From positions 2,208,001 through 2,272,000 of the forward strand of contig CP182352.1 of the NCBI GenBank assembly GCA_048571215.1: a stretch of DNA of 64,000 bases. The letters are read 5' to 3'. Of the stretch, positions 1 to 32,238 are shown one piece after another; positions within the stretch are counted from its first letter, which is position 1, and the number at the start of each line of letters is the position of its first letter. The position numbers and the translations under genes were made by a program. The stretch is from Halarcobacter sp. (GTDB taxonomy: Bacteria; Campylobacterota; Campylobacteria; Campylobacterales; Arcobacteraceae). The notes beneath the pieces were generated by a model. It was not told the DNA's origin, did not search any database, and was given only the letters and a program-made list of their open reading frames with translations.

Positions 1-415
1 AAAAGTTCATTTTATAGATTCAGGGTTAGCAAGTTACCTTTTAAACTCAAGTGTTGAGGCTTCTTTAGTAGGTAAAAATGAGCATTTAGGAAATCTAGTT
101 GAAACCTTTGTATATAGTGAACTAATTAAACATCAATCATACTCAGAAGAAAATATAGAAATTTATCACTATAGAGACCAACAACAAAAAGAAGTTGATT
201 TTGTAATTGAATCAAATTCAGGTGATATTGTAGCACTTGAAATCAAATCAGGTTCAACCATTAAAAAAGAACAATTTAAAGGTCTTCTAGCTCTAGCTCA
301 AACAATTAAAAAGAAAAATTTTAAAGGTATTGTTTTATATGGTGGAGATAAGATATTGCCTTTCAAAATTGAAGAATATCAATTTTGGGCAATTCCTTTA
401 AGAGTATTAATTTAA
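1..415 (+). CDS. 3' end of AAA+ ATPase / DUF4143 (REase-fold C-terminus) protein, 5'-truncated by window
   Basis: Manual frame-2 translation KVHFIDSGLASYLL...GNLVETFVYSEL...YHYRDQQQKEVDFVIE...ALEIKSG, stop TAA 413-415; motifs typical of AAA_14+DUF4143 proteins; Gly encoded by GGN. Confidence 0.8.
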   Translation, partial: KVHFIDSGLASYLLNSSVEASLVGKNEHLGNLVETFVYSELIKHQSYSEENIEIYHYRDQQQKEVDFVIESNSGDIVALEIKSGSTIKKEQFKGLLALAQTIKKKNFKGIVLYGGDKILPFKIEEYQFWAIPLRVLI

Positions 416-594: not shown

Positions 595-2400
595 ATGAAT
601 AAAAATGTAATTATTTATTGTAGAGTATCTACCGATAAACAATCTAAAACTTGAGAAAGTTTAGAAGAACAAGAAAGGCAATGTAGGGAATATTGTAAAA
701 ATAATGGTTACCAAGTTTTAGCAGTATTTTCAGAACAATTTACTTGAACAAAAGATAGAAGACCAAAAGTTCAAGAAGCTCTAGAGTTTATAAAAAACTC
801 TGAGCTTCAAATTAATCACATCATAGTATTAAAAATAGATAGAGTTAGTAGATGATGAATTTTAATACACGATAGCTTTAAAAATCAATTTAAAGCATTA
901 TGAGTAACATTAAAAGATACATACTGAGTTATATGAGAAGATAAAAATGTAGTTAAAATAGATTGAATTAATACGGATAAATATAATTGGGCAAAAAGTA
1001 ACTCAAATCAAATTGCAGAAAATGTAACTGTAATGATGAGTGAAAATGAAAGAAATACTATACTACAAAGGCTTTTATGACAAGCTATAAAAAATAATAT
1101 GAGATGATACAAAGTTAGAGATTCTGAGTATGGTTATAAAAATGCAAGAATTATGACTGAGTTTTGAAAAAAAACAATACAAGTTGAAAATACAGAAGAG
1201 AGTATTTATATTAAAAAACTATTTGAGTTAAAAGCTAGATGAGATTTAAGTGATAAAAAAATTGTAGATGAAATTAATTTAATGTGATATAAATCTAGAA
1301 AAAGAGTTAAATGGAATAAAGAAAAAACACAGCCAGTATGAAGTATATGATGAAAACCTCTTAGTGTTGAGCAATTGCAAAGGTATTTAAAAATGACTAT
1401 TTATGCTTGAATTGTTTGTGAGGAATGGACTTGAAATAAACCTATTAAAGCACCTTATAATTGATTAGTTAGTTTAGATGTATGGAATAAAGCTAATAGG
1501 GGAAAGTATAGGTTAACAGAAGTAGAAGATTGAATATTTAAAATAGAGTATTTTAATGGAGAAGAAAAAATTGAAGCTCCAATTATTCAAAAACACAAAA
1601 ACTATAATCCTGAGTATCCTTATTGAAAAGTTTTAGAATGTCCTATATGTTGATGACACTTAACAGCTGAAAAATCTAAATCTAAAAATTGAAGCTATCA
1701 TCATTACTATAGTTGTAGATGAAAAAAATGAGTTAGGCACAAAAATTATTGACTAAGAAGAGATGAGATTAATGAATATATTATAGAGACTTTTTCAAAT
1801 ATTAAATTTGATAAAAATATATTAAAAATATTTAATTTAATATCAAAAGATGTTTTTGAAGATAGAAAAAAAGAGCTACAAGAGAAAGATTTATTAATAA
1901 TTCAAAATATAAAAGATTTAGAAGTAAGAAAAGAATCTATTTTAAATAATATCCCAAATATAATAAACTATCCTGATATTTTAGAAGCACAAAATAATGA
2001 GCTTCAAAAAATAAAACACACTATTTGAGAATTACAAATTAAACAAAAAAACAATACTAAGTCTTTATGATTAAAAAGATTTCAAGATTGTTCTAAAAAA
2101 ATTCTCGAACACCTTGATAAACTAGTATTACAAAGGGATAATCCAGAATTAATACAGCTTGCTTTTGATGTAGTTTTTGATTGAAAAGTAAAGTTTGAAA
2201 ATTTAAAATCTCGAACACCAATTAATAAGGAGTTTTTGGCTTTAAATACAAAAAAAGATTTTCAAAAAAATTGAAAATCTTCATTAAATCTCAAATGGTC
2301 GGAAACAAATAAAAGTTACCACACAATAAAGGATTGGATTGTTAAATTAATAGACAAAATTGATAAGTGGCAGTATGTAATTGAGTGAATAAATATTTAA
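595..2400 (+). CDS. large serine recombinase (resolvase + recombinase + Zn-ribbon + coiled coil), 601 aa, encoded with TGA=Gly (code 25)
   Basis: Frame free of TAA/TAG from ATG 595 to TAA 2398-2400 with ~32 in-frame TGA; YCRVSTDKQ catalytic motif, KIDRVSR motif, CPIC[TGA][TGA]HL and YYSC Zn ribbon; TGG is used for Trp. Confidence 0.92.
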
Positions 2401-2797: not shown

Positions 2798-4328
2798 ATG
2801 TCAAATAATTATGAAACCATAGAAACTTTTTTAAATAACTTTGTGGAATCAATAAGAATTACTGATTCTGCACTTGAAAAAGCAGAAGCTCGTTATAAAA
2901 GTATAGGTAATTGGCTTAATAGGGAAGAATCTGCACTTGTTAAATTTGAACCTGAAATTTATTCTCAAGGTTCAATAAGATTAAATATTGCAATTAAACC
3001 TATACATGACGATGAAGAATATGATTTAGATGCAGTTTGTTTATTAAATAGATTAGCAGTAAATATTATAAGCCAAGAAAAATTAAAAAAAATAGTTGGA
3101 GAAGAATTAGACTTATATGTAAAAGAAAATGGGTTTAAAAAACCTTTACATGAGGGAAAAAGATGTTGGACTATAAAATATTCTGATTCTGCACAATTTC
3201 ATATGGATATATTACCATCCGTCCCAGATGAAGAAGGTTTTAGACAAAAGTTATTTGAAAATAATATTACGTTAGATAGTATTAATAAATTACACACATC
3301 AAGTGCAATCTCAATCACAGATAATACTTCTTCAAACTACCCATATATTCATCATGATTGGAATAAGAGTAACCCTAAGGGCTATCATGAATGGTTTAAA
3401 GAAAAATGTAAAGTTACACAATTAACAAAAAGATTTAATTCTTTGATGGTTGCAACTGAAAGCGTTGAAGAGATACCTAGTCAAGGATATAGTTTTACCT
3501 TTACAAAAAGCAATTATGATTTTAAAAAGACATAGAGATATAATGTTTAAAGGTGATAGTGAACATAAACCTATTTCTGTAATTATAACTACTCTAGCAG
3601 CCAAAGCTTATAAAGGAACAAAAGACTTAAAAGAAACTCTAGATGATATTGTTTTTGGGATGGAAAGAGAAATTGACTGCAATGAAAAATGTATAGTTTT
3701 AAATCCAATAAATCCAAATGAAAATTTTGCAGATAAATGGGAAAACGAACCAATAAAAAAAGAAGTTTTTTTTAGATGGTTAGAACAACTTAAAATTGAT
3801 TATAAATATTTGTCATCAGATAACTATGGTAATACAAAAAATTTACTTGAAAATAGTTTTGGAACAAATGCAATACAAAAAACTTATAATGATAGCTTTG
3901 GGGTAGTTAAAAATTTAGCTATAAGAGCTAAGGAATTATTATCTTTATCTCATGTTCAAAAACCAAAATGGGAAAATAATATAAAATATAGAGTTGATAT
4001 TATTTGTATGAAAAGTAAAAATGGATGGATGTCAAAAGATTTAAAAAGTGGTGAACCAATTGAAAAAAATTGGAATTTAAGATTTGAAGCAAAGATACAA
4101 AATATAGGTTCAGGAAGAAAATTTTATTGGCAAGTTGCAAATAGTGGATTAGAAGCTAAAGATGCAAATTGTTTAAGAGGTAGCTTTTATGAAGGAGTAA
4201 TATCTAAAGGTGGAAAAGTTAGAGAAGAATCAACTAGTTACAGTGGCTCACATTTTGTAAGATGTTTTGTTATTCAAGATAATAAATGTGTTGCAATTAG
4301 TGAACCATTTATTGTAAATATTATTTAA
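2798..4328 (+). pseudogene. CBASS CD-NTase (cGAS/DncV-like, SMODS) with C-terminal AGS-C-like domain, split by a 1-nt frameshift near 3493
   Basis: ORF 2798-3535 has SQGS..L...IKP and EYDLD motifs; ORF 3450-4328 continues with PLQKAIMILKRHRD, KPISVIITTL, NPINPNENFADKW and WQVANSG..LRG..EST.Y.G.H..RCF; removing one T from AGTTTTACC joins them into ~509 aa. Confidence 0.85.
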
Positions 4329-4337
4329 GGAAAAAAT

Positions 4338-5378
4338 ATGAAGTCAGTAATGAATTTTATCTTAAAAATTTTTGAACTTTTAAAGAGTGACCCAAAAACT
4401 ACAATAGCGAAATATATTTTTTTTGGAGGTATTGGACTTCGAGGTATTGGACAAATAGTTTATGAATTTTCCGATAAAGATGTTTCTCATACTCTTACAT
4501 TTTCTGATGGTATTGATTATACTGGATATCTTTTAGTCTTTATAGGTATTGTATTATTAATGATTAGATTTTTTACTATAAAAAACAATTCTCCTACTTT
4601 AGCTTATGGTATTGGCATGGAAAATATGGATATACATTTACCGTTAAAAGCAATTCCTAGTTATGAAAGATATGATTGTATAGAGTTAAGTATTCCTGAA
4701 ATAAATTCATATGATAAAAATGAAGTACTTGAAATTTATAAATTTATTAAAACACTAATTAATTCAAGAGTAGAAAATAAAAACTCACAAAAGGTTTATA
4801 TTGGAGCATTAGGAAGTTTTCCATATCTTTTTTTATTAGGAACCTTATTTAGAAATGCATATTCTCATATACAGTTACTAGATTATGATAGACATGCTAG
4901 TGGCGGAGGGAAATGGTATAAGTTACCACCATATAATGAAAGTACAGAAAAGCTATTTCACAAATTAACGTATGAAGATAAATCTATCGAAGAGAAAATA
5001 CATGAGTTAATAGAAAATGAATTAGATGAAGTAGGTATTGCATTATCATATACTTTTCCTATTAATAAAAAGGCTATTCCTGAATACTTAAGAACCAATA
5101 TACTTTATTTAGAGCATACTTATGGTATAGGGCATGACAAATTATCAAATGAGGAAGCACAAAGAAATTTAATTAATGAATTATCTAAATATATATCTTT
5201 ATTTGCTGATAATGGTAAAAAAATTCATTTATTTGTATCTGCACAATCTTCAATATGTATTAATATAGGGAAATCTTATATGAATAATTCTCATGGAACT
5301 TTAATATTACATAATTATGATAGTTCTACAATAAAATATAATTGGAATATTAAGTTTAATAAAAATAATATAGATTAA
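4338..5378 (+). CDS. 2TM-SAVED CBASS effector
   Basis: Two N-terminal hydrophobic segments, then a SAVED-like region (VYIGALGSFPYLFLLG; IHLFVSAQSSICINIGK); directly after the CD-NTase with AAGGA RBS. Confidence 0.8.
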   Translation: MKSVMNFILKIFELLKSDPKTTIAKYIFFGGIGLRGIGQIVYEFSDKDVSHTLTFSDGIDYTGYLLVFIGIVLLMIRFFTIKNNSPTLAYGIGMENMDIHLPLKAIPSYERYDCIELSIPEINSYDKNEVLEIYKFIKTLINSRVENKNSQKVYIGALGSFPYLFLLGTLFRNAYSHIQLLDYDRHASGGGKWYKLPPYNESTEKLFHKLTYEDKSIEEKIHELIENELDEVGIALSYTFPINKKAIPEYLRTNILYLEHTYGIGHDKLSNEEAQRNLINELSKYISLFADNGKKIHLFVSAQSSICINIGKSYMNNSHGTLILHNYDSSTIKYNWNIKFNKNNID

Positions 5379-7723: not shown

Positions 7724-7813
7724 GTTTTACTCCTTATAATAATTTCTAGTATATAAAAAATATGTCACAATCGACGTCACAAAAAGTATAAATTTTTAAA
7801 TTTATTATTTTAA

Positions 7814-7899
7814 AGCCATTTCCTGCTATTCATTATAATTAAATGGAAGATTAATTCTACTACTATTAGGACTATCCTACAAAGATAAACACTCTGTTC
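7814..7899. repeat. copy 1 of an ~87-bp structured non-coding repeat
   Basis: About 80% identical by manual alignment to 9802-9888 (AGCCA.TTCCTGCTAT.CATT...ACTAT.AGG.CTATCCT...TAAACAC). Confidence 0.8.
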
Positions 7900-8446: not shown

Positions 8447-9193
8447 ATGAAAAATATTACACACAAAGTTATTCAAGGAGGTTGTCTTGAAGTTATGAGA
8501 AAAATACCTAATAATTCAATAGATTTTATTTGTTCTGATTTTCCTTATAACATATCTTGAAAATGAGGTCTTACAATAAAGTGAGACAAAATAGTTAAAG
8601 CTGATTTTTGAGAATGGGATAAATGGGATTCGCAAGATGAATATTTAAACTTTGTATTTGAAATTTGTAACGAATACAAAAGAATATTAAAACCAAATGC
8701 TAGTTTAGTTTTATTCTTCTCTTATCATTATGCAGGATGGTTAGCTTATGAGTTACAAAGAAGATGATTATTTACATTTAGAAATCAAATTATCTTTAAC
8801 AAAGTAAATCCGCAAGTTCATTATAGAAAAAATGGTTTTAGATCATGTCATGAAGTTTGAGTTTGGTTAGTCAATGATTGATGAAATTTTAGTAAGCCAA
8901 GAGTATTTAACTTTTTGTGACAATCTAAAATGAAAAATGTTTTAAATTATGAGATTGGCAAAAATAAGCAATCTAATCATCCTACTGAAAAACCTGAATT
9001 TTTAATATGAGGTTTAATTGAAGTTTTTACAAATATTTGAGATATTGTTTTAGATAGTTTTGCAGGTGGTGGTACTACAGGAGTTGCTGCTTATAAAAAG
9101 AATAGAAGTTGTATTTCTATTGAAAAAGAAGCAGGATTTATTAATACTATTAGAAAAAGGCAAGAAAAAGCCAAAAATAAAAAGGGATATTAG
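8447..9193 (+). CDS. N6-adenine/N4-cytosine DNA methyltransferase (beta-class motif order), 248 aa, encoded with TGA=Gly (code 25)
   Basis: Open from ATG 8447 to TAG 9191-9193 with 11 in-frame TGA; DFPY catalytic motif, DF[TGA]EWD, HPTEKP, NI[TGA]DIVLDSFAGGGTT SAM-binding motif. Confidence 0.92.
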
Positions 9194-9715: not shown

Positions 9716-9801
9716 GACTAAACATTTGCTCACCGCGAAAGCTTATAATTTATTATAAGTCGTGGATGAGCCAACAACTGCAAGGTGTTAGTTTTTTATA
9801 G

Positions 9802-9888
9802 AGCCAATTCCTGCTATCCATTCCAATCAAATCAAAGATTTAATTCCATTACTATCAGGGCTATCCTGCGGAGCTAAACACCCTCTTC
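9802..9888. repeat. copy 2 of an ~87-bp structured non-coding repeat
   Basis: Direct imperfect repeat of 7814-7899; internal stems CCTG/CAGG and AATCAAATC/GATTTAATT. Confidence 0.8.
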
Positions 9889-10268: not shown

Positions 10269-10733
10269 ATGACAAAGTTAGAGATAGAAAATGAGTTTAG
10301 AGATGTAGTAGGTATAAATGAAGCTAAAAAGGTATATAAAACATTAGCTAAAAAACTTCATCCTGATGTTGGAGGAAGTGATGAAGAGTTTAAAATATTA
10401 AATGCTGTATATAATGATTTTATAGAGAATAAAATACATTTTTCAAATGATAGTAAAATTGATATTGAATTAGAGAAGATTATAAGTCAAATATTACATT
10501 ATGAGGATATTACAATAGAATTAGTAGGTTCTTGGATTTGGGTTAGTGGAAATACTAAAGAGATAAAAGATAAATTAAAAGAGCTTGGTTTTAAATGGGC
10601 TAGTAAAAAGAAGATGTGGTACTATGGAGAGATGAAAGCTAAAAATCCTAATCCTAAATCTATGGATGAGATTAAAGCTAAATATGGGAGTAAGGCTTTT
10701 AAGGATAAGGAGAGAGGTAGTATAGCAGGTTGA
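10269..10733 (+). CDS. J-domain (DnaJ-like) protein of the type common on conjugative/mobile elements
   Basis: YKTLAKKLHPDVGGSDEEFK (HPD motif) plus WIWVSGNT..IKDKLKELGFKW..KKKMWY; ends in a TGA stop. Confidence 0.8.
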   Translation: MTKLEIENEFRDVVGINEAKKVYKTLAKKLHPDVGGSDEEFKILNAVYNDFIENKIHFSNDSKIDIELEKIISQILHYEDITIELVGSWIWVSGNTKEIKDKLKELGFKWASKKKMWYYGEMKAKNPNPKSMDEIKAKYGSKAFKDKERGSIAG

Positions 10734-10913: not shown

Positions 10914-13900
10914 TTGAATTTTTTTAAAATCTTCTTAGCTCTATTTATATTTAATATTTACTCTTTTGCAGGAGTCACATTTTATGATTTTTGGATTAAA
11001 GATTCTCCTTATCTCGAAGGTAAAACAAATAACTTTGATGCACAGTTTAAAATTAAAAATACAGGAAGTTCCTCTTTATATATTCAGCAGGTTGAAGTAA
11101 CAATATTAAATTCTAATGGTAGTTATAACAGTAATTGTTGGTATAAAAATGTCAATAAAACTTTGTATCCAAATAGTTCTTATTCATCAGGTATTGGGTA
11201 TTGTACATTAAATTCCACTGGTGATTTTAAAGTTGTAGCAAAAGTTAAATATGGAAATAATTATTATGATAGTCCAACAAAACATTCTATTACAGTAACA
11301 GCTCCTGTAAATAATGCACCCACAATAGAAAAGAGTGGAACACAACCAACAACAGTTGAAGTTGGGAAACCAATAGCATTTGCATTAAGAGCAAAAGATA
11401 GTGATGGAAATCTTTCAAGTGTAGATTTTGACTGGAATGATGGTTCTTCAAATGAAGTTGTTGGAAAAAGTGCAGCAGGAACATATGAGAATTTAGTATT
11501 TAGTAGAACATTTAATAAAACAGGAAATTTTACAGCAAGTGCAACTGCATATGATAAAGATGGTGCAAAGAGTGGAAGAATACAATTTAGTTTTTCTGTA
11601 ACAGCTCCTGTAAATAATGCACCCACAATAGAAAAGAGTGGAACACAACCAACAACAGTTGAAGTTGGGAAACCAATAGCATTTGCATTAAGAGCAAAAG
11701 ATAGTGATGGAAATCTTTCAAGTGTAGATTTTGACTGGAATGATGGTTCTTCAAATGAAGTTGTTGGAAAAAGTGCAGCAGGAACATATGAGAATTTAGT
11801 ATTTAGTAGAACATTTAATAAAACAGGAAATTTTACAGCAAGTGCAACTGCATATGATAAAGATGGTGCAAAGAGTGGAAGAATACAATTTAGTTTTTCT
11901 GTAACAGCTCCTGTAAATAATGCACCAACAATAGAAAAGAGTGGAACACAACCAACAACAGTTGAAGTTGGGAAACCAATAGCATTTGCATTAAGAGCAA
12001 AAGATAGTGATGGAAATCTTTCAAGTGTAGATTTTGACTGGAATGATGGTTCTTCAAATGAAGTTGTTGGAAAAAGTGCAGCAGGAACATATGAGAATTT
12101 AGTATTTAGTAGAACATTTAATAAAACAGGAAATTTTACAGCAAGTGCAACTGCATATGATAAAGATGGTGCAAAGAGTGGAAGAATACAATTTAGTTTT
12201 TCTGTAACAGCTCCTGTAAATAATGCACCAACAATAGAAAAGAGTGGAACACAACCAACAACAGTTGAAGTTGGGAAACCAATAGCATTTGCATTAAGAG
12301 CAAAAGATAGTGATGGAAATCTTTCAAGTGTAGATTTTGACTGGAATGATGGTTCTTCAAATGAAGTTGTTGGGAAAAGTGTAGCAGGAACATATGAGAA
12401 TTTAGTATTTAGTAGAACATTTAATAAAACAGGAAATTTTACAGCAAGTGCAACTGCATATGATAAAGATGGTGCAAAGAGTGGAAGAATACAATTTAGT
12501 TTTTCTGTAACAGCTCCTGTAAATAATGCACCAACAATAGAAAAGAGTGGAACACAACCAACAACAGTTGAAGTTGGGAAACCAATAGCATTTGCATTAA
12601 GAGCAAAAGATAGTGATGGAAATCTTTCAAATGTAGATTTTGACTGGAATGATGGTTCTTCAAATGAAGTTGTTGGGAAAAGTGCAGCAGGAACATATGA
12701 GAATTTAGTATTTAGTAGAACATTTAATAAAACAGGAAATTTTACAGCAAGTGCAACTGCATATGATAAAGATGGTGCAAAGAGTGGAAGAATACAATTT
12801 AGTTTTTCTGTAACAGCTCCTGTAAATAATGCACCAACCCACATATCTACAACAATTACACCTACACAAATTATTGAAGCAGAAGATATTAATATTAAAA
12901 CAATATTTAATGATGTTGATGGCGATTTTATTGTTAATGTAAAAGTAAGATACAAAAACATTAATTCTTTAAGTTGGACAGAATTAAATTTATCTCACTT
13001 ATCTACAGAATCAAATAATGAAATTTTTACAGGGACTATTAGTGGTGGTCTAGTAAGTGGAGAATATGAATTACAAGTTCAAGCAAGTGATAAAGAGAAT
13101 TTAACTGATAGTGATGTTTTACATACAACAGATTGGATTGCTGTTAATAGTTTTATTGTAAAAGAAAAAGGCAATAATATTCCAGAGATAATACATATCT
13201 CTACATCAGGTACAAGTACTTCTAATTCTATCAAAACTAATGAAGAAACATTAACTGTAACCCTTAAAATTAAAGATATAGATGGAAATATAGATAGATT
13301 AGAATTTGACTTTGATAAAGATTACGACTTGACAGAAGATAATGAGAAGCAAAATTTTTTCTTTAATACAACAGACAAAGAAATTACTCAAACTATTTCA
13401 TTTCAGTATACAGATGATTACTTAGAAAATTGTCCAAATTTATCAGGACAATTATATTCTGACATTTTATATGATGGCACTTGTTGGAAAAATCATAAGA
13501 GATGGAAAGCCATTGTATATGATAAAAAAGGGAATAGTACAACATTAATACAAGAAGGAGATGCCACACATATATATTCTTCAGATGGTTTAGAAAAATA
13601 TCAATTAGAAAAGAAGAATAAAGAAAAAAATGTAAAAGTTGAAGAATTAGAAAAAAATAAAAAAAATTATGATGATTATATTTCCAGCTTACTAGAAAAC
13701 ATAGATAAAACTTTAAAAGAAAATGATCCTAAACTTGGAAAATTTGAAGAGCAAGAACAAATTTTTGAGCTAAGTAAAGGTGGAGATATAATTAGTTCAA
13801 AATTAAGGATAACATATGTAGGTAGAGAAGATGAAAATGATACATCAAACTATCCTGCTAATGTTGTTCTTTCAATAAAAAGAAAAGATACACCTATATA

Positions 13901-15119
13901 TATTGGTAACAAGGAATTTAATTCAATAGCTTATAATTTAGAACATTTAAAAGCTATACTTGATCTAAGTAATAAATATATATATGATGAAATATTCTTT
14001 AAAAATATATGTTCAAAAGATGATAATCAAGTGATTGGAGTATGCCAAGCAGTTGAATTGGAATCAATAATTACTGAAGAAAGTGTAAAAGATATCGCAT
14101 CTGCAATTTCTGATAAAATGGGGAGTTCAGTTAGTGAAATTTCAAAAGCTACAAGAGATGGAGTACTAAAAGCAACTAAAGAAATTGTTTCAAGCTATGC
14201 AGAGACCCCACAAGATTTAGCTAATGCTGCAACAATAGTTTTTGGATTTACTAAAGATTTAATTAAAAATCCAAAAGAAACTATTAATAATAGCATTGAC
14301 AAGGTTAATGAAACAGCTGAAATATTAGGTATGTTTAAAGATGAATTATTAGAAGTAATACCTAATCTATCTGATATAATTAGTCATTTTACTCCTGTAG
14401 AGAAAGCATTTTTTACAGCATATATAACTACACATGTGGCACATGAATTAGCACCAACAAGTAAATTAAAACTTGCAAAATTAGCTAAAACTGATAAAAT
14501 AAAAAGAGCAAAATGGCTTAGAATTTCAAAACTTTTACAAATTTCAAAAGAACTTGGATATAAAATAAAATATTCCTATTTAATAAATTTTAATGATAAA
14601 GATTTTGATGTAATCGATCGTATTCTTACAAGAAAATATGAGAATAATCCATTAACTAAATCTGAGCATGTAATATTATCATTATTAGAAAAAGATAGAA
14701 AAAGTGAGTGGAGACCTTGGCTTTTAAATATGTGGTATGGAAATGTCTTTAATGATAAAAGAAGAGATAATTTTGATTATAATGAAGTATATATATTAGG
14801 TAAAAATGGAGATTATTATAGACTTGATTCATTCAATACTAAAAAACAACCTAAAGGAATCTTTTCGAGAAAAGATACACAAATGTCTGAACAACCTGAA
14901 CAAGCTATCAAGTATTTAGATGAGTTTGCAGAGAAATATCCTTCAGGTGCACAAATTGCTAATGTTCCAAGTAGTCAAAAAATGGGTATAACTGGAACAT
15001 TAAAAGGTCAGATGTATTTAGAAGTTCCAGTACAAAATAATAGTATACCTCAAAATATTTTAGACCATGCAAAAGATTTAAAAATTAAGATAAGAGATAT
15101 AGATGGAAAAATTTATTAA
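10914..15119 (+). CDS. large secreted polymorphic-toxin-like protein with five tandem 101-aa beta-rich (Ig/PKD-like) repeats and a putative C-terminal nuclease-type toxin domain
   Basis: 1401 aa, Sec-type signal peptide, NNAPTI...DSDG..VDFDWNDG repeats; C-terminus NEVYI..YRLDS..SRK.TQ..LEVPVQ..IRDIDGKIY resembles toxin tips; overlapping small downstream gene. Confidence 0.7.
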   Translation: MNFFKIFLALFIFNIYSFAGVTFYDFWIKDSPYLEGKTNNFDAQFKIKNTGSSSLYIQQVEVTILNSNGSYNSNCWYKNVNKTLYPNSSYSSGIGYCTLNSTGDFKVVAKVKYGNNYYDSPTKHSITVTAPVNNAPTIEKSGTQPTTVEVGKPIAFALRAKDSDGNLSSVDFDWNDGSSNEVVGKSAAGTYENLVFSRTFNKTGNFTASATAYDKDGAKSGRIQFSFSVTAPVNNAPTIEKSGTQPTTVEVGKPIAFALRAKDSDGNLSSVDFDWNDGSSNEVVGKSAAGTYENLVFSRTFNKTGNFTASATAYDKDGAKSGRIQFSFSVTAPVNNAPTIEKSGTQPTTVEVGKPIAFALRAKDSDGNLSSVDFDWNDGSSNEVVGKSAAGTYENLVFSRTFNKTGNFTASATAYDKDGAKSGRIQFSFSVTAPVNNAPTIEKSGTQPTTVEVGKPIAFALRAKDSDGNLSSVDFDWNDGSSNEVVGKSVAGTYENLVFSRTFNKTGNFTASATAYDKDGAKSGRIQFSFSVTAPVNNAPTIEKSGTQPTTVEVGKPIAFALRAKDSDGNLSNVDFDWNDGSSNEVVGKSAAGTYENLVFSRTFNKTGNFTASATAYDKDGAKSGRIQFSFSVTAPVNNAPTHISTTITPTQIIEAEDINIKTIFNDVDGDFIVNVKVRYKNINSLSWTELNLSHLSTESNNEIFTGTISGGLVSGEYELQVQASDKENLTDSDVLHTTDWIAVNSFIVKEKGNNIPEIIHISTSGTSTSNSIKTNEETLTVTLKIKDIDGNIDRLEFDFDKDYDLTEDNEKQNFFFNTTDKEITQTISFQYTDDYLENCPNLSGQLYSDILYDGTCWKNHKRWKAIVYDKKGNSTTLIQEGDATHIYSSDGLEKYQLEKKNKEKNVKVEELEKNKKNYDDYISSLLENIDKTLKENDPKLGKFEEQEQIFELSKGGDIISSKLRITYVGREDENDTSNYPANVVLSIKRKDTPIYIGNKEFNSIAYNLEHLKAILDLSNKYIYDEIFFKNICSKDDNQVIGVCQAVELESIITEESVKDIASAISDKMGSSVSEISKATRDGVLKATKEIVSSYAETPQDLANAATIVFGFTKDLIKNPKETINNSIDKVNETAEILGMFKDELLEVIPNLSDIISHFTPVEKAFFTAYITTHVAHELAPTSKLKLAKLAKTDKIKRAKWLRISKLLQISKELGYKIKYSYLINFNDKDFDVIDRILTRKYENNPLTKSEHVILSLLEKDRKSEWRPWLLNMWYGNVFNDKRRDNFDYNEVYILGKNGDYYRLDSFNTKKQPKGIFSRKDTQMSEQPEQAIKYLDEFAEKYPSGAQIANVPSSQKMGITGTLKGQMYLEVPVQNNSIPQNILDHAKDLKIKIRDIDGKIY
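11295..12839 (+). repeat. five near-identical 303-bp tandem repeats plus a partial sixth
   Basis: GTAACAGCTCCTGTAAATAATGCACC recurs at 11295, 11598, 11901, 12204, 12507, 12810. Confidence 0.97.
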
Positions 15120-17112: not shown

Positions 17113-17352
17113 ATGAAACCCATCCTCTCAATTCTACTAATAATCCTACTTTCAACATCACTTCTAAGTGATGAAACAAAAAAAGAAACTCAAAAAATAG
17201 AAGAAAAACAGGCAATGACAGATGAAGAGTTTTTAAAAAAATTTATGAAATTAGATAAAGAAGTAGAAGAAGCAAAAGCAAAAACTAAAGCTTTAGAAAA
17301 ACTTGAAAAAAAAGTTGATGAATTGGCAAAAACCCTTGGAGTAGATAAGTAA
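17113..17352 (+). CDS. small secreted coiled-coil protein
   Basis: Signal peptide, AAGGA RBS, divergent from the XRE gene. Confidence 0.65.
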   Translation: MKPILSILLIILLSTSLLSDETKKETQKIEEKQAMTDEEFLKKFMKLDKEVEEAKAKTKALEKLEKKVDELAKTLGVDK

Positions 17353-17433: not shown

Positions 17434-19026
17434 ATGACTGAAATATCATGAGGTAATTTTGAATCAAATGAAAATATTCCAAAATTAAAACAAACAAGTC
17501 CAGAAGATATTCAAAAAGCGTGAGAAGATATAGAATATTCAAATCATTTACAAAAAGTAAATGATGTTTTAAATGTACTTAATTTTCCTAATAATGCTGA
17601 AAAAAAATTTAGAACTATTTTAGATAAGCAAGATGATAAAACTTTGATTGAACTATCAAAACAATCAAAATGAGATATTCAATCTTTTTTGCTAAATAAT
17701 AGAAAAACTGAAAAATCTACAGAAGAAGAAAAGCATTTAGATAAAAATGTAAATATAAACTCTAAAATTTCAAAAATCAAATCAACTTTTTCTCCTGAGA
17801 TTCTAAGTAATAATCCTGATATTGAAAACCTAATTAACTCTTTTGATTTACAAAAAGATGAATGAGAAAACATAAATATTATTGATAAAATTCTAAATCT
17901 TTTAAAAGAGCCTTGAAAACTAAAATCAATAGTTGATGATTTATGATGAGCAGATAAAAACAATCCAAAATATTTAGAATTCAAAGAAAGTTTAATTTGA
18001 ATAGATTCTAGTTTTGAAAACTATTTTAATGATCTTGAAAATATAAACTCAAAAGATGAGTTAAATACAAATAATATAGTTTGAGAGATAGAAAAAGAAT
18101 CTTGATGACTTGAAACAATTGATTTAAATAGTTCTAATCCTGTTTCAAAACTAAGTTTAATTTGAAGTGATTATAGTTTTGATGAAAAAATTGATAAAGG
18201 GGCGCTTTGAGAGTTAATGAATACAAGTGAAAATAAATTAAAAGAGATTCAAAATAGTATAACTATTTTGAAAAATGTATATACTCCCTTCGATAGTTTA
18301 TTAAATCAAATCAAAACTAACTGGCAAAAACAAGATTTAAAAGAGACATTAAAAAACCCTTTATCTAGATTTCCAAGCAGTACATTTGCAAATTTAGAAA
18401 AGGTTTATAAAGATATTTGAATTGATTCAAATATACAGCTAAAACAATTTGATATATCAAGTTTAGCTGATGTAAAAAATGCTAATGAATTAAGAGTTAA
18501 AATTGAAAATATCAAAACCAAATTTGAACAAATAAAACTTCAAATTCTAGAAAGAAAAGATGAGATTTTAAAAGATTATAAAGCAAATGTAAAAGAGCTT
18601 TTACAAAGAAAAGAAAAAGCCAAAGAAAAACAACTTGAAGTATTAAAATTTATGAAAGCTAGTTGATTTGATTTAATCCCAAAATCTATTACTGATAAAC
18701 TAATATTAAATCTTCAAAATAATTCATTTCAAATACAAGGTTTAGATTTAAATGTACAAAACATAGATTTAAAAAACTGACATTTTTGAGAATCATTAAA
18801 TATAGACAATGAAACTTGATTTAATACTCTAGCTAAAACAAATCTAGTTAAGTTTATGAATAAACTTATATCATGAAATATTGAAGAGCCTTTAAGTGTT
18901 GACGCTATCGCAAATTGAATTTCTGTAACTAATTCAGCAGATTTAAAAAATCAATTTAGAGAATCTTGAATTGTTGATTGATTGGGTTGGAAGTATATTA
19001 AGATTGTTGAGAATTTGAAAAGTTAA
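17434..19026 (+). CDS. hypothetical protein, 530 aa, encoded with in-frame TGA (code 25 inferred)
   Basis: No TAA/TAG from ATG 17434 to TAA 19024-19026; ~22 in-frame TGA and only ~4 GGN; track ORF 18217-18420 is an internal piece. Confidence 0.85.
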
Positions 19027-19407: not shown

Positions 19408-20737
19408 GAGACCGTTCAAAAATCTGTGTCAAGTCACCTAAAGTAACAAATCCATACTTGTTACAACTCTAAATAATTATCCAATCTCCCTTCGAAAAAT
19501 ATAGCAAGTTGGGAGATTGTTAAACTCCAATTATGCACTGGCTGAGTCCATTTTACTTTTGCATTTAATATTCCCATATACAACAATTTTAAAAGTGAAT
19601 TCTCATTAGGGAAAGCTCCTTTTGTTTTGGTTAATTTTCTAAATTGCCTATGTACAGATTCAATAATATTTGTAGTGTACATAATCTTTCTTATCTCTTT
19701 TGGATATTTAAAATAATAAGATAAATTCTCCCATTTATTTTGCCAAGATTGAAGTACTATGGGATATCTTTTCCCCCATTTTTCATCTAGTTTTAAAAGC
19801 TCATCTTCTGCAAGTTCTTTTGTTGTTGCTTGATAAACAAGTTTTAAATCTCTCATAAACTCTTTTTGGTCTTTAGAAGCTACATACTTCAATGAATTAC
19901 GAATTTGATGTACAACACAAAGTTGTACTTCGGTATTTGGATATATTGTTTTAATAGCTTCAGGAAAGCCTTTAAGACCATCTACTGATGCAATTAGTAT
20001 ATCTTCTAATCCTCTATTATTTAAATCAGTAAGAACACTAAGCCAGAAGTTTGCTCCTTCACTTTGGGATAAATATAATCCTAATATATCTTTTTTACCA
20101 TCAATTCCCATCCCTAAAACTGTGTAAACTGCTTTACTCACATACTTCCCACCATCTTTTATTTTATAATGTATCGCATCAAGCCATACAAATGGATAAA
20201 TAGCTTCTAAAGGTCTACTTTGCCAAGCTTTTACCTTATCTATAATTTTATCTGTAATAGTGCTTATTGTTGCACTTGATAATTGTATTTGATATATCTC
20301 TTCAATATGTTTTATAATATCTCTATAGCTTAATCCTAAGCCATACATAGATAATATCTTTTCTTCTATTTCATTAGACATTGTTGTTTGGTTTTTCTTT
20401 ACAAGTTGTGGTTCAAAAGAACCTGTTCTATCTCTTGGAGTATTCAATTCAAAGGAACCACTTGTTGATTTTATTGTTTTAGAGCTTTTACCATTCTTTC
20501 TATTTTTATTTCCTGCAAATACATCTTGAGTTATATGAGAATCTAATTCTGCTTCTAAAGCAGCTTCAACTAATTGTTTTACTAATGGAGCAAGTACTCC
20601 ATCTTTACCATTGATATTTTTACCTGCAAGTAAATCTTGTACAGCTTCATTAAAATCAAATTGTTTTTTCTTTTCCATCTATATCAATCCTTATAATATT
20701 TATTATATCAGACTGACACAGATTTTCTAACACTCCC
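19408..20737 (-). mobile_element. IS256-family insertion sequence
   Basis: Imperfect terminal inverted repeats (GAGACCGTTCAAAAATCTGTGTCA / TGACACAGATTTTCTAACACTCCC) and 8-bp target duplication GTGTCTTA at 19400-19407 and 20738-20745. Confidence 0.93.
19461..20678 (-). CDS. IS256-family (Mutator-like) DDE transposase
   Basis: RNG...PRDR..SFEPQ, YPFVWLDA, DGLKGF, QLCVVHQIRN, YTTNIIES motifs. Confidence 0.95.
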   Translation of the reverse strand: MEKKKQFDFNEAVQDLLAGKNINGKDGVLAPLVKQLVEAALEAELDSHITQDVFAGNKNRKNGKSSKTIKSTSGSFELNTPRDRTGSFEPQLVKKNQTTMSNEIEEKILSMYGLGLSYRDIIKHIEEIYQIQLSSATISTITDKIIDKVKAWQSRPLEAIYPFVWLDAIHYKIKDGGKYVSKAVYTVLGMGIDGKKDILGLYLSQSEGANFWLSVLTDLNNRGLEDILIASVDGLKGFPEAIKTIYPNTEVQLCVVHQIRNSLKYVASKDQKEFMRDLKLVYQATTKELAEDELLKLDEKWGKRYPIVLQSWQNKWENLSYYFKYPKEIRKIMYTTNIIESVHRQFRKLTKTKGAFPNENSLLKLLYMGILNAKVKWTQPVHNWSLTISQLAIFFEGRLDNYLEL

Positions 20738-20745: not shown

Positions 20746-21040
20746 ATTTTATTTTGTATTTGTTTGTTGATTTTATTTTAGTGTTATTCGTTTTATCTTA
20801 GTTTTTTTAATTTAATTTTTTACTGTTTTTATTTATTTAGTTTTTAAATATTTTTTAGTTTTTATTTTGTTCTTTTAACTTTGTTTTACTATTTTTTATT
20901 TTAATGTTTTTGTAATTTTAATTTTGTTCTATTTTAATGTTTTTGTAATTTTTTTGATTCTTATTTTTTTAACTTTTGTTTTACTATTTTTATTTTTTCT
21001 TTAATTTTATTTTTTCTGTTTTTTATTTACTTAATTTAGA
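20746..21040. repeat. extremely T-rich low-complexity tract with short internal duplications
   Basis: ATTTTAATGTTTTTGTAATTT twice and AACTT(T)TGTTTTACTATTTTT twice; no ORF in the track. Confidence 0.7.
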
Positions 21041-21249: not shown

Positions 21250-22191
21250 ATGAAACTAACTGAAGTTATAAAAGATTTTAAATTTCATTGTGAATATGAA
21301 AAAAACTTAAGTGAAAAAACATTACAAGCGTATAATATAGATTTAAAACAATTTCAAGAGTTTAAAGATTATAAAAGTATAGATATTAAAGATTTTGATA
21401 AATACAAATTAAAAGATTATATTCAAAGTTTATATACACAAGACTTTAAAGCAAAAACTATAAAAAGGAAAGTTGCAGTTTTAAAAGCTCTTTTTACATA
21501 TTTAGAATTTGAAGAAATGATTTTAGTTAGTCCATTTAGAAAAATGAGAGTTTCGATTAAAGAACCTAAAAATCTACCTAAAACAATGGAACTAAAAGAG
21601 GTAAGAAAAGTTCTAAAATATTTATATAAATCAAAAGAAGAATTTTTAGATAAAGATGTTTATACATACAAAGCATTGGTAAGAGATATAGCAATAATAG
21701 AGATTTTATTTTCAACAGGTATAAGAGTATCTGAGTTATGCAGTATAAAACAAAAGAATATAAATTTACAAGCTGGGATTATCAAAATAAAAGGTAAAGG
21801 AGATAAAGAAAGGATAATACAAATATGTGATAATGAAGTAAAAAAAATACTTAGAGAATATATAAATTTATTTAGTATTCAAATGGAAAAAACAGAATAT
21901 TTTTTAGTTAATAGATTAGCAAATAAAACTTCAGAACAATCTGTTAGACTTATGATAAAAAAATATCAAAAGCTATGTGGTCTTGATAAACATATTACTC
22001 CCCATATGTTTAGACATAGCTTTGCTACTTTACTTTTAGAAGAAGGTGTTGATATACGATATATACAGCACATGTTGGGACATTCTTCAATCTCTACAAC
22101 CCAAATTTATACTCAAGTTAATATGAAACAACAGAAGAAGATACTGAATACAAAACATCCAAGGAGGGGTTTAAGTTTTGTAGATGAATGA
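21250..22191 (+). CDS. XerC/XerD-like tyrosine recombinase
   Basis: TGIRVSEL, KGKGDKER, HMFRHSFAT, LGHSSISTTQIY; AAGGAG RBS; TGA stop. Confidence 0.95.
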   Translation: MKLTEVIKDFKFHCEYEKNLSEKTLQAYNIDLKQFQEFKDYKSIDIKDFDKYKLKDYIQSLYTQDFKAKTIKRKVAVLKALFTYLEFEEMILVSPFRKMRVSIKEPKNLPKTMELKEVRKVLKYLYKSKEEFLDKDVYTYKALVRDIAIIEILFSTGIRVSELCSIKQKNINLQAGIIKIKGKGDKERIIQICDNEVKKILREYINLFSIQMEKTEYFLVNRLANKTSEQSVRLMIKKYQKLCGLDKHITPHMFRHSFATLLLEEGVDIRYIQHMLGHSSISTTQIYTQVNMKQQKKILNTKHPRRGLSFVDE

Positions 22192-26104: not shown

Positions 26105-26437
26105 ATGAATACAAATATACTTATGGATTTATCAAGAAATACTCTTTGAGCTTGATATTTAGATGTTCAATTTTTAGTTGAACTTGTTGAAAAATACAAT
26201 CTTGATATAGATGATATATCTGAAAATATTGAATTCTGTTTTTGAAAAGAGTTTAAAACAGATATAAACTATTTCATTTATGAAGCTTTAACTCAAATTG
26301 CTTCAAAATTTATTGAATCAAATATTGAATTATTTGAATCTGAAAGTAATGAATTTGAAATCTATACAAATTTTTTTGATAGTCATATATATTTCACTTC
26401 GGAAATTGTTCAAAGTGAATTTGAGAACTTTTATTAA
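26105..26437 (+). CDS. acidic hypothetical protein, 110 aa with three in-frame TGA (code 25 inferred)
   Basis: MNTNILMDLSRNTL[TGA]A[TGA]YLDVQ...CF[TGA]KEF...EIYTNFFDSHIYF...ENFY-TAA; no GGN codons. Confidence 0.7.
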
Positions 26438-27047: not shown

Positions 27048-27413
27048 TTGAATACATTTGAAACCCTTTTAGAGATAAAAACAGCAAAAAAGAATTTATC
27101 TCTAAAAGCAATATATATAAAACATCCAAGTAAAAAATTAAAATGAACCTTTTATATTTACTACTTTGATAAAATTAGTCACTCTTTACATATCAACTGA
27201 ATAAATAAAAAAACTATTTCAGAAAGTTCGCTAGAAGAGATTATAAATAGAGTATTTAAAAAAGAAGAAAATAAAAATAAAAAACCAAGTGTTTTTTACT
27301 TTTCTATGCAAGATGATATTGTGTATATTGATAGAGTTAAATTAAAAGCTCAAACAAATAAAAAATGAGAAATTATAAAACTACTTATTGATAGTTCAAA
27401 ATTATACTCTTAA
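27048..27413 (+). CDS. hypothetical protein, ~121 aa with three in-frame TGA (code 25 inferred; may be truncated)
   Basis: TTG 27048 to TAA 27411-27413 with no TAA/TAG between; no GGN codons. Confidence 0.5.
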
Positions 27414-28307: not shown

Positions 28308-28670
28308 ATGAGTAACTATCAAAAAGAGTATAAGAAACAATATAATGAAAAGAATAAAATAGTAACCTTTCCATTATCAAATGCCTTTTACAGCGAACTA
28401 AAAAAAAGAGCATATTATCTTGATGTAAAAACAAACTCTTATGCAAAAAATATTGTAACAGAGTATTTAAATGACAATGTTTTTAGAACTCTTACAAGTG
28501 AGAAAAAAGAGATTATCAAGGAGTATATACATATATCAAGAGGTATTGCTAATAACATCAATCAAATAGCTCATAAAACAAATATTGAATCAACAGTAGA
28601 TATTAATATTTTAATATCTTCATTAAAAAACTATGAAGATGAGTTTAAAAAATTCATAACCAAGATTTAA
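28308..28670 (+). CDS. mobC: MobC-like relaxosome accessory protein
   Basis: RGIANNINQIAHKTN motif; directly before the relaxase. Confidence 0.8.
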   Translation: MSNYQKEYKKQYNEKNKIVTFPLSNAFYSELKKRAYYLDVKTNSYAKNIVTEYLNDNVFRTLTSEKKEIIKEYIHISRGIANNINQIAHKTNIESTVDINILISSLKNYEDEFKKFITKI

Positions 28671-28671
28671 T

Positions 28672-29520
28672 ATGATAATTAAATCAATGAGTAGAAAGAG
28701 TAAATCTTTTTCACAACTATATGACTATTTAATGAGAGAAGAGCAATCATTCTGTTTTACAAGAAATGCTTACTCAAATCCCAAAAACAAAAAAGAACTA
28801 ATAAAAGAGTTTATGCAAAATAGCTATTATCTAAAAAATGCAAGAGGTAAAAACTATTTATACCATGAACTATTATCATTAGAGCAAAACAACTTATCAA
28901 TAAAAAGACAAAAAGAGATACTTTTAGATCTAGCAGATAAATTTCTAAAACTTAGAGCTAGTAATCATATAGCTTTTGGTGTAGTTCATGAAGATAAACA
29001 ACATATACATCTTCATCTAATGCTTAGTGCCAATGAAATTGAAGGACAAAAACGAGTAAGACTATCAAAGCAAGAACTAGCTTCAATACAAGCTACACTA
29101 GAGCATTATAAAAATGGAAAATATTTAGAACTTTCTCAATCTGAATTTTATCAAAAAAGAAAAGACCTTTCAAAGATGTACCAAAAAGAACAAGAGATGA
29201 AGCATAGAAGAAATAAACAGCCTAAAAAAGAGATGATAAAAGAAGAATTAGAAAAAATCTTTAAAACAGCAACATCAAGAAAATATTTAGAAAACTATCT
29301 AAAAAATAGAGGTTTTACACTTGATAAATCAAGAGGGCAAACTATAAAAATCATCTATGAAAACAAGCCCTATAGATTAAAAACACTTGGACTTGAAAAG
29401 GAATATAAAGAATTAGAAAAAAGACTAGAACAAATACAAGAAAGAGAGATGAAACGGCAAAGAGCAAAAGAAGAAAGAATCCAAACTAGAAAAAACCAAG
29501 AACAAACATTTGAAAGATGA
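28672..29520 (+). CDS. MOBP-type HUH relaxase
   Basis: MIIK...LYDYL, YHELLS, VVHEDKQHIHLHL; TGA stop overlapping the next gene. Confidence 0.85.
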   Translation: MIIKSMSRKSKSFSQLYDYLMREEQSFCFTRNAYSNPKNKKELIKEFMQNSYYLKNARGKNYLYHELLSLEQNNLSIKRQKEILLDLADKFLKLRASNHIAFGVVHEDKQHIHLHLMLSANEIEGQKRVRLSKQELASIQATLEHYKNGKYLELSQSEFYQKRKDLSKMYQKEQEMKHRRNKQPKKEMIKEELEKIFKTATSRKYLENYLKNRGFTLDKSRGQTIKIIYENKPYRLKTLGLEKEYKELEKRLEQIQEREMKRQRAKEERIQTRKNQEQTFER

Positions 29521-31141: not shown

Positions 31142-31891
31142 ATGGGATTTTTTGAACAATTAAATGCTGAAATAACAAGAATGACAATAGAAAACTTTAT
31201 AGCATTATCTTTAATGTTTTATATCCCTTTTCACTTTTCAAGAAAAGCAGAGAGTTTATTTTTACATCTAGTGTATTCATTTTTAGGATTATATATGATT
31301 CTTTTTACGCAGGATACAAGAATATTAAATGATCCTAAATTACTTGTGGGATTAGGCTTGATTATTCCTCAAATTAGATTTATAATCCAGTTTGTAAAAG
31401 ATTCTATATTTACAATAAAAATGATGACTGCAAATACTTATTATTTCTTTGTAACCATATATTACAAAATTCTTAGATTTAAAGCATGGGTTGAAGATGT
31501 AATCTTGATGTTTAAAAACTTTGAATTTAAACATGAAAAGAAAAACTATTCTTACCATGAAGAAAATAACTATCAAGAAAAAAAGCAAGAACAAAACTAT
31601 AATGAAAAAGATAGCTATGAATATGAAGAATCATCAAAGCAAGAAGAACAACAAACATCTTATGAAGAGCCTAAAAAAGACTATGGAGAGCATGAAAGGT
31701 TTTATAGTTCAAATGCTTATATAGTTTTGGGTGTTAGTGTAGATGATGATTATAATGAAATTAAAAAAGCATATAAAATGCTTGTGAAGATTTATCATCC
31801 TGATTTACATCTTGATGAATTCAAACTATATAATGAGATTATGCAAAATATAAATCAGGCACATGACAAGCTTAAAAAAATCCATAATTAG
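31142..31891 (+). CDS. membrane protein with C-terminal J-domain
   Basis: TM segments; AYIVLGV..IKKAYKMLVKIYHPD...INQAHDKL. Confidence 0.8.
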   Translation: MGFFEQLNAEITRMTIENFIALSLMFYIPFHFSRKAESLFLHLVYSFLGLYMILFTQDTRILNDPKLLVGLGLIIPQIRFIIQFVKDSIFTIKMMTANTYYFFVTIYYKILRFKAWVEDVILMFKNFEFKHEKKNYSYHEENNYQEKKQEQNYNEKDSYEYEESSKQEEQQTSYEEPKKDYGEHERFYSSNAYIVLGVSVDDDYNEIKKAYKMLVKIYHPDLHLDEFKLYNEIMQNINQAHDKLKKIHN

Positions 31892-31899
31892 GAATATAA

Positions 31900-32238
31900 A
31901 TGTTTAATAGAAATAAATTTACCGATGATGATTTTAGAGACTTAGAAAGACAAGAAGCGTATGAGAGAAGAAAAAATGAACAGATGGTTAAAGGTGTTGG
32001 AAACTTTATTTATAGATTCTTTGTTTATTGTTTTATTTGGATTACGGGATATTTATTAACTATGACAATTCTAGCAGGTGCTTTAAAAATGGGAGTACTT
32101 TTATCAGCTATTATTGGAATGATTCTTCCTATTATAGTTATTAGAAAAGTAGAGTATATAAAAGAGAATCCATTTAAAAGTTTAGTTTTAACAGCTTTTC
32201 TACTTTTTATATCAATGATTGCTTTTGATGTTAGGTAA
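31900..32238 (+). CDS. small membrane protein
   Basis: 112 aa, three hydrophobic segments. Confidence 0.65.
   Translation: MFNRNKFTDDDFRDLERQEAYERRKNEQMVKGVGNFIYRFFVYCFIWITGYLLTMTILAGALKMGVLLSAIIGMILPIIVIRKVEYIKENPFKSLVLTAFLLFISMIAFDVR

Follow-up and report, generated by a model that had tools for sequence, protein, structure and literature searches.

The question raised by this locus is why a bacterium that ends translation at TGA should carry an intact gene in which TGA stands 32 times where glycine is expected. The gene lies in a window of 64,000 nucleotides, the whole stretch of DNA analysed here (positions 2,208,001 to 2,272,000 of contig CP182352.1, from the Halarcobacter genome G000), and coordinates below are those of the window unless genome positions are given. 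An earlier note on this DNA had proposed a hidden large serine recombinase (LSR) of 601 aa with about 32 UGA-glycine codons. With table 25, positions 595-2400 (+) indeed translate into 601 residues before a TAA stop; TGA is used exactly 32 times in this frame and GGN four times. In code 11 the frame is closed at codon 20 by the first TGA (652-654), and the code-11 ORF list holds no ORF of at least 100 aa over 595-2400, so that the gene is missed by the ORF track, both as the note had said. When the gene was shuffled 2000 times, in-frame TAA/TAG codons averaged 50 with a minimum of 31; the real gene has none, so its open frame is not due to chance.

The recombinase motifs quoted in the note are all present, and its domain assignment is borne out in two of three Pfam families by the protein's own score: Resolvase (PF00239, E 4.9e-19) and Zn_ribbon_recom (PF13408, E 9.1e-6) are above cut-off, while Recombinase (PF07508, E 0.0012, 19.5 bits) falls slightly below its cut-off of 21.1 but is matched at E<=0.01 by 10 of 13 aligned relatives, the best at 9.7e-12. 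The catalytic residues (R10/S12 and D82-R83-x-x-R86) and the four zinc ligands (C349, C352, C374, and H382) are invariant across the 13 relatives. The nearest solved structure is the TP901-1 catalytic domain (3bvp); whole-protein matches to CcrB and XisF are weak and far under the cut-offs of those families. The region 595-2400 is an intact LSR of the code-25 type that its host cannot read.

The meaning of TGA was read from a codon alignment of 15 LSR relatives, none of which (0/15) has an internal TAA or TAG. The 412 aligned cells that face the TGAs of this gene hold 194 TGA, 115 GGN, 103 other codons, and no TGG, and those that face its TGG codons hold 68 TGG, nine others, and neither TGA nor GGN. 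Because TGA and TGG never share a column, TGA as tryptophan (code 4) is ruled out. Three code-11 relatives have glycine in 61 of 87 cells facing TGA, in agreement with the proposal that TGA occupies glycine sites. A selenocysteine reading was also considered, the host having a tRNA-Sec of normal length, yet the TGA columns are glycine columns. The alignment indicates that TGA is glycine in this gene. Close homologues in the databases are recoded too, and not code-11 Campylobacterota genes with TGA off the glycine columns, the contrary outcome named in the earlier note; they are stored with W where the DNA has TGA, which is a gene-caller artefact.

G000 itself is a code-11 organism. Judged by the named homologues of its element proteins and by the label of L005 in a tree, it belongs to Campylobacterota and probably to Arcobacteraceae. 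The genome is a single contig of 3.61 Mb with 28.5% GC, encodes both RF1 and RF2, and uses TGA as the terminal stop of 316 of its 2283 genes of at least 200 aa. Code-25 organisms have a glycine tRNA that reads UGA. No tRNA-Gly(UCA) is present among the 45 ARAGORN tRNAs or the 44 above-cut-off Rfam matches of G000, where tRNA-Sec is the sole tRNA with a UCA anticodon. In the mobile element that carries the LSR (see below), neither tRNA-Gly(UCA) nor any other tRNA was found. A suppressor tRNA was sought as well; normal thresholds gave none, and the 6029 matches of a relaxed ARAGORN run are pure noise. In code-25 organisms, as described in PMC6851277, TGA is not a stop and RF2 is absent, and G000 shows none of the code-25 features that were compared. 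Recoding across the host genome is likewise ruled out, since the three clear code-25 ORFs of the whole of G000 (the LSR, a methylase, and a 530-aa gene) are confined to the element; two small recoded genes in it were recognised only by comparison among elements.

The element extends over 34.6 kb, from genome position 2,205,756, 2.2 kb ahead of the window, to window position 32,400, so that its in-window part is 1-32400. Its two ends have in common an 8-nt core and an arm-type repeat (25 of 26 nt matching), one copy of which lies at 32268-32293 (+) and the second immediately before the code-11 tyrosine integrase of the left end (genome 2,205,930-2,207,030; PF00589). The right att site of this integrase is the 3' half of a tRNA-Arg(UCG) gene, which ends in the anticodon-loop core (32355-32400, -). 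In G000 the flanks are parts of a dispersed host repeat and the intact tRNA-Arg of the host is 660 kb away. In G007 a sister element, whose integrase is 92-93% identical, has inserted with the same core and the same ends into a tRNA-Arg that is intact, so that the G000 copy is a secondary-site insertion. A contig from soil that matches the left end at 99% identity begins exactly at the att core, which indirectly suggests that the element is mobile. Mobilisation families are represented (PF03432, PF02534, and PF05713), and no mating-pair families were found among the element proteins scanned, a scan that covered the small ORFs in part only. With an integrase and flanking att sites, a relaxase and a coupling protein, and no mating-pair genes, the element is, as judged from its sequence, an integrative mobilisable element. 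The earlier note had called the LSR the integrase of a code-25 element. A code-25-type LSR integrase that the host cannot read it is; but a separate code-25 element is not supported, the LSR being a module of a mixed-code element whose ends are made by the code-11 tyrosine integrase.

The backbone of the element is in code 11 and comprises the tyrosine integrase, a DUF4143 ATPase, DnaJ-domain genes, MobC, the relaxase, and the coupling protein. The 3' part of the 416-aa AAA/DUF4143 ATPase gene occupies 2-415 (+), and in L005, L022, L033, G007, and G556 the same gene precedes a recoded LSR, either immediately or almost so. A 154-aa DnaJ-domain gene with a TGA stop follows at 10269-10733 (+). 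The mobilisation module (28308-31141, +) consists of MobC (28308-28670), the relaxase (28672-29520, TGA stop), and the type IV coupling protein (to 31141), and is followed by a 249-aa DnaJ-domain gene and a 112-aa gene (31142-32238, +). Other code-11 genes are a CBASS-type cargo (2798-5378, +), with a cyclase in two frames (2798-3535 and 3516-4328) and a SAVED-2TM effector (4338-5378), a XerC/D-like tyrosine recombinase with a TGA stop (21250-22191, +), and a passenger transposase of the Mutator family (19461-20678, -). Interspersed are the code-25 genes: besides the LSR, an N6/N4 DNA methyltransferase (8447-9193, +; 248 aa, 11 TGA), a mostly helical 530-aa protein with no family assigned (17434-19026, +; 22 TGA), a conserved 110-aa gene known from seven elements (26105-26437, +; 3 TGA, 0 GGN), and a conserved 121-aa gene with a TTG start (27048-27413, +; 3 TGA). 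A 79-aa gene without TGA is conserved immediately upstream of the 530-aa gene (17113-17352, +). Two Flavo-1-like repeats, at 7804-7885 (-), under the Rfam gathering score, and at 9790-9874 (-), with 41.7 bits, slightly short of the gathering score of 42, prompt the idea of cassette or integron capture, which was rejected since they bracket the methylase segment only and leave the LSR outside.

The same division between two codes is found throughout a family of elements. Intact LSR copies with 20-28 TGA are present in code-11 elements of a Campylobacteraceae genome bin (L005) and of five metagenome contigs (L019, L022, L029, L033, and L035). The coupling protein was found in 12 of 184 family genomes, all of which were mapped except G489 and G482, where the contigs are short. 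Clear code-25 ORFs occur in 14/14 of the Campylobacterota elements scored (38 of 227 ORFs), and in 0 of 172 ORFs in 187 kb of their host flanks. The count of 14/14 is biased, since most elements were located through their recoded genes; a code-11 query led to G016, G020, and G556. The separation is nearly complete at the codon level: 77 backbone genes hold 715 GGN and two internal TGA, and 28 recoded genes hold 407 TGA and 201 GGN. Thirteen of the 77 backbone genes have a TGA stop, so that read-through of these is expected in a code-25 cell. Elsewhere the LSR was found neither in 400 other genomes of the phylum nor in 183 others of the family; a plasmid collection gave only distant LSR matches (<27%) and none to the 530-aa gene, and neither the LSR motif nor the 530-aa gene was found in the viral contigs searched.

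The recoded genes are evidently maintained. The median dN/dS under code 25, by a simple counting method in which several pairs are saturated, is 0.135 for the LSR (18 unsaturated of 21 pairs), 0.14 for the methylase, 0.28 for the 530-aa gene, and 0.21 for the 110-aa gene, similar to the 0.075-0.235 of code-11 backbone genes. These ratios indicate purifying selection on the recoded genes and, with no in-frame TAA/TAG in the LSR, uphold the view that no decay is visible. The suggestion that the LSR was acquired very recently, on the other hand, is not supported: other hosts have elements of this family with intact copies, 43-69% identical and under purifying selection. Recoded intact methylase genes are also found in G017, G306, L029, L033, and G032. 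The earlier reading was right in part but did not reach far enough: what was found is a family of elements partitioned between two genetic codes.

A striking aspect of the partition is that each code has its own recombinase. Code-25 recombinases were seen in 15 elements and fall into four unrelated types: the LSR of G000, shared by seven elements (G000, L005, L019, L022, L029, L033, and L035), a second LSR type (G007 and G306), a third (G016, G547, and G556), and a tyrosine recombinase (G017, G020, and G557). The three LSR types are mutually only 24-28% identical. In twelve elements the code-25 enzyme stands in the slot that follows the code-11 integrase module; the corresponding slot of G205 shows no recoded recombinase, and the contigs of G447, G469, and G488 are partial. 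Unrelated enzymes that replace each other in the same code suggest that the recombinase function is needed.

Where the LSR is likely to act can be read from its own 3' end. LSR homologues align as far as an invariant Trp568 and then split into two tail types. The chromosomal copies in code-25 organisms run into a tRNA-Lys, -His or -Trp gene on the opposite strand (L018; L020, L024, L025, L030, and L031; L034), and the distant code-11 relatives L023, L026, and L027 likewise end in tRNAs. The element-borne LSRs have a few bases that resemble a tRNA 3' end, followed by a conserved non-tRNA tail; alignment A1 shows this tail in 10 of its 19 rows, and among the fetched loci it is seen solely at LSR gene ends. 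Both forms occur within one 90% cluster: P0067 is 99% identical to the attP-tail proteins P0004, P0065, and P0066 over residues 343-570 and then runs into a reversed tRNA-Pro unlike that of the host, its motif being present in 0 of 201 Campylobacterota genomes. P0067, like P0210 and P0211, is a protein from a single short contig (5.7 kb for P0067) in which TGA is deduced from W at glycine columns. In a quick tree the attP-type clade of 19 rows (support 95) includes P0067, and its sister is formed by tRNA-type copies, the code-25 chromosomal L018 among them; L019 falls outside the clade and groups with L020 and L034. The 19 rows comprise 15 attP-type copies, one tRNA-type copy, and three that are partial or unplaced. 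These comparisons point to an attachment site inside the 3' end of the LSR gene itself, with a probable crossover point in a core at 2296-2303 (+), which starts from the W568 codon and is the reverse complement of a tRNA-Pro-type 3' end. The gene in G000, with its conserved non-tRNA tail in the unrecombined form (2304-2400, +), would then carry an unused attP. No attL/attR pair, which the earlier note had proposed to seek in the flanks, was found to bracket the LSR. No joint between the LSR and a tRNA appeared among the matches listed from the contigs of 4 of 18 runs, and the tRNA-end cores of the other recoded recombinases that were examined gave very short matches only.

Recoding reaches the backbone in some elements. 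G306, a complete, single-contig, code-11 genome, has two mobilisation modules, one per code, the recoded one with 8 TGA in the relaxase and 23 in the coupling protein, and G506 has a recoded mobilisation module on a short contig. In the coupling-protein tree the recoded versions stand at three or four separate places, one within the clade of the G000 copy, and it appears that this protein was recoded several times. P0211, for example, has W at 12 glycines of the G000 coupling protein and nests with the G000, G007, and G017 copies. Recoded backbone genes imply that the backbone has functioned in code-25 cells. There is also a mirror case, in a different element seen on five contigs, where a code-25 LSR sits at a tRNA-His of a code-25 chromosome and the mobilisation genes after it, which include a coupling-protein-like ATPase, are in code 11 (85 GGN, with TGA used three times as a stop and never internally). 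No contig was found with a G000-type backbone in a code-25 chromosome, the metagenome records having been seen up to 10 kb; those LSR copies for which DNA of a code-25 chromosome is available (L018, the L020 group, and L034) have neighbours that differ from the backbone.

The reading that best accommodates these results is that the element moves to and fro between Campylobacterota and Patescibacteria of code 25, with a separate integrase for each code, to which we assign a probability of roughly 0.6; the earlier note's suggestion that the LSR is functional only in a recoded partner agrees with it. In the Campylobacterota host, insertion of the element would fall to the code-11 tyrosine integrase, and its mobilisation, through a secretion channel borrowed in trans, to the relaxase and coupling protein, which are also in code 11. 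The UGA-rich genes would be silent there, because RF2 would terminate their translation after a few codons. The excised circle would enter, by cell contact, a bacterium in which UGA is glycine (Gracilibacteria/Absconditabacteria), plausibly an attached epibiont, where the LSR, the methylase, and the other recoded genes would become readable. The LSR would then recombine its own internal attP with a tRNA 3' end, and integration would exchange its last ~30 residues for tRNA-derived ones. A return to Campylobacterota would complete the cycle, and the genetic code itself would serve as a host-specific switch. According to PMC12102498, Patescibacteria have a widespread type IV system, mostly without a relaxase, with relaxases in 103 genomes. 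Several results weigh against the shuttle reading: among the contigs seen, none joins this backbone to a code-25 chromosome; P0067, P0210, and P0211 come from single short contigs; 13 of the 77 backbone genes stop at TGA; the GC3 of recoded genes goes with the code-11 side; LSR distances do not match those of the backbone; and the slot in G205 shows no recoded recombinase. At even odds, the proposal can be widened to the family as a whole: it would alternate between Campylobacterota and attached UGA-recoded Patescibacteria with one integrase, and sometimes one mobilisation module, per code, and the parasite would be a vector that carries defence cargo between prey cells.

An alternative without a second host is that recoding is conditional and occurs in the Campylobacterota cell, once tRNA-Gly(UCA) has been provided, and RF2 weakened, by a helper that is either a recoded phage or a parasite attacking the cell. 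We know of no helper that does both. The GC3 of the recoded genes follows that of the backbone (rho 0.90, n=14, the points not being independent) and also roughly tracks the Campylobacterota flanks. Most replication would thus seem to take place in Campylobacterota, which also fits expression in the host. The predominance of unrecombined copies among the sampled members of the LSR clade (15/19 attP-type) is also in line with conditional recoding, and code-switching recoded phages of standard-code hosts are reported in the introduction of PMC10746230. However, the suppressor tRNA is missing from host and element alike, and LSRs that target non-host tRNAs, the second integrase, and the duplicate mobilisation modules are left unexplained. 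Conditional recoding is unlikely.

Quite unlikely is the proposal that the recoded genes are dead cargo, captured repeatedly from the environment by an ordinary Campylobacterota element, with a selection signal that arose in the code-25 donors, and now decaying. The four unrelated types in the recombinase slot agree with it, as does the departure of the LSR tree from the backbone: LSR distances are not congruent with those of the relaxase, coupling protein, and MobC (Mantel, 31-38 of 120), and the 530-aa and 110-aa genes show weak congruence only (142 and 97 of 5040 at best). Other points in its favour are a relic of the 530-aa gene at another place in G000, decayed by 7 internal TAA/TAG, and an orphan intact homologue placed between host genes of G263. 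The distribution of the 530-aa gene nevertheless shows that decayed copies are nearly absent. It is present in 8 of 184 family genomes from 7 genera and in 3 of 401 phylum genomes (2 of 400 besides G000); TGA is its only 'stop' in 7/7 of the other family genomes, and 69 of its 69 database homologues look recoded. (Its protein was modelled poorly from the single sequence, with pLDDT 42, and at pLDDT 82 and pTM 0.57 from an alignment; the latter model had no fold match in PDB or BFVD at E<=0.001.) The 110-aa gene is present in G482 and G506 and was not found in G489, G017 or G556, and look-alikes of the 121-aa gene, recoded and in the same place, occur in G007, G016, G020, G306, and G547, with the N-terminus matched by eye. 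The 530-, 110-, and 121-aa genes keep their position and order across genera and families. Moreover, recoding of backbone genes requires a backbone that works in code-25 cells, and the GC3 of the recoded genes matches that of the backbone. The dead-cargo proposal is already weakened by these observations.

It is very unlikely that code-25 bacteria are the home of the family and the Campylobacterota copies dead ends of a one-way spill-over. The fully recoded mobilisation modules of G306 and G506 would be expected if it were so, and among 150 relaxase representatives there are four with W at >=2 of 8 glycine columns. Against this, W at glycine columns is found in only 2 of 120 coupling-protein homologues and not in the other 118, the named ones being mostly from Campylobacterota, and the recoded coupling proteins are nested and look derived. 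Some backbone genes (13 of 77) stop at TGA, and the tyrosine integrase comes with half of a tRNA-Arg of the host type, by which the tRNA is restored in G007. An assembly chimera or binning error that joined Gracilibacteria DNA to a Campylobacterota genome, which the fragmented metagenome bins of several carriers and the 3-4 kb contigs with the G506 and G032 matches might suggest, is hardly credible and already largely refuted by the gene-to-gene alternation of the codes, by four single-contig genomes with such elements (G000, G016, G306, and G556), and by a public 13,656-bp contig that holds the junction, integrase, LSR, cargo, and methylase in one piece with 0 differences, at a depth of 37.6 against 44-48 in the flank (its run X1 is possibly the source of the assembly and not independent).

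The shuttle reading would have several consequences if true. The hosts of most Patescibacteria are unknown, according to PMC10746230 and PMC6851277. An element that passes through both cell types would name Campylobacterota as a candidate host group, complete with sequence tags, and the elements would record which Gracilibacteria live on which Campylobacterota. The family would also offer a natural example, outside phages, of a genetic code that turns genes on or off according to the host, a strategy opposite to that of phages that avoid TGA. Independently of the model, recoded genes are a blind spot: standard annotation overlooks them, and databases hold tryptophan in place of glycine. The LSR subfamily is a candidate tool whose tRNA-end target can be read from its own sequence.

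How the element compares with known systems may be considered part by part. Other systems are known in which an integrase gene is split by the att site it contains. The G000 LSR has the same catalytic motifs, and probably the same domain order, as known large serine recombinases (TP901-1 integrase, CcrB, and XisF), but differs in being in code 25 within a code-11 genome, in the probable att site in the 3' end of its gene, in its apparent targeting of tRNA 3' ends, and in a C-terminus that would be rewritten on integration; no paper on its subfamily was found in the literature searched. Integrative mobilisable elements likewise have a tyrosine integrase that targets tRNA or tmRNA, a module of MobC, relaxase, and coupling protein, defence cargo, and no mating channel of their own. 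Unlike them, the present element adds a further set of genes, with another recombinase among them, that is in another genetic code and under selection.

Among phages, those of Gracilibacteria/Absconditabacteria compatible with codes 11 and 25 have no in-frame TGA, so that all their genes are readable in both hosts, and the prophages described are wholly in code 25 (Liu et al., 2023; PMC10746230). Such phages are, like the element, mobile DNA proposed there to meet both recoded Patescibacteria and standard-code bacteria; the elements, in contrast, are split into TGA-dense genes (38 of the 227 ORFs scored) and TGA-free ones. Stop-codon-recoded phages of standard-code hosts, such as the TAG-to-Gln phages of Prevotella, are described in the introduction of the same paper (PMC10746230), and resemble the element in having one genome in two codes, with in-frame stops that gate some of the genes. 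The element differs in that it is not a phage, that the gated genes are for integration and mobilisation rather than late genes, and that it is without a code-switching tRNA. A mixed-code mobilisable element was not described in the literature searched, which was without most subscription journals. The general picture that emerges is that the parts, an LSR and an integrative mobilisable element, are of known kinds, and that what appears to be new is the partition of one element between two genetic codes and, if our reading is correct, the shuttling between two kinds of cell that such a partition would serve.

The 530-aa recoded gene (window 17434-19026), in which TGA is read as glycine, has further copies or homologues elsewhere. 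A decayed remnant of it (L049) lies near tRNA-Asn genes in the host genome, G000 (720,990-721,514), and in another genome, G513, the gene comes after tRNA-Asn, at a contig end. In G263, an intact recoded homologue of 543 aa, with 9 TGA codons and 29% identity, has host genes on both sides (locus L068, 14679-16310), and the element backbone, the code-11 genes common to the family, was not seen in 35 kb. The relic in G000 has a Flavo-1-like repeat beside it, at genome position 721,730. Two such repeats (window 7804-7885 and 9790-9874) are located on either side of the segment carrying the recoded N6/N4 DNA methyltransferase (window 8447-9193), and further copies are present in G017, G007, and G002.

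The flanks of the G000 element (genome ~2,205,500-2,205,760, and window 32,400 onward) both belong to a dispersed host repeat family of more than 15 copies. Left of the element, an operon with ABC transporter and carboxylase-like genes is preceded by a Guanidine-I riboswitch (L001, 5613-5711). A separate element with code-11 genes (L020, 1-10981; also L024, L025, L030, and L031), different from that of G000, has been integrated at tRNA-His by a code-25 large serine recombinase in two distinct code-25 chromosomes. In several elements the DUF4143 ATPase is replaced by a "mobile mystery protein" A/B pair (HTH and Fic), situated behind the integrase (L037, 11241-12226; L055; L059). On a 2.8-kb contig of G032 (C145; L039), which may be misbinned, recoded DUF2958, DUF7222, and methylase genes adjoin a TGA-free gene.

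Within the element cargo, the CBASS cyclase (window 2798-4328) is broken into two frames near 3490-3535, and its halves match successive parts of one PADLOC model. The two-frame form has identical letters in a public contig, which may be the source of the assembly and so is not independent. A T-rich low-complexity stretch (window 20800-21040) has a transposase on one side and a XerC/D-like gene on the other. The cargo also encodes a 1401-aa PKD-repeat protein (window 10914-15119), whose five 303-bp PKD repeats are 98-99% identical; a 194-aa gene comes after it, and the two probably form a pair resembling a polymorphic secreted protein.
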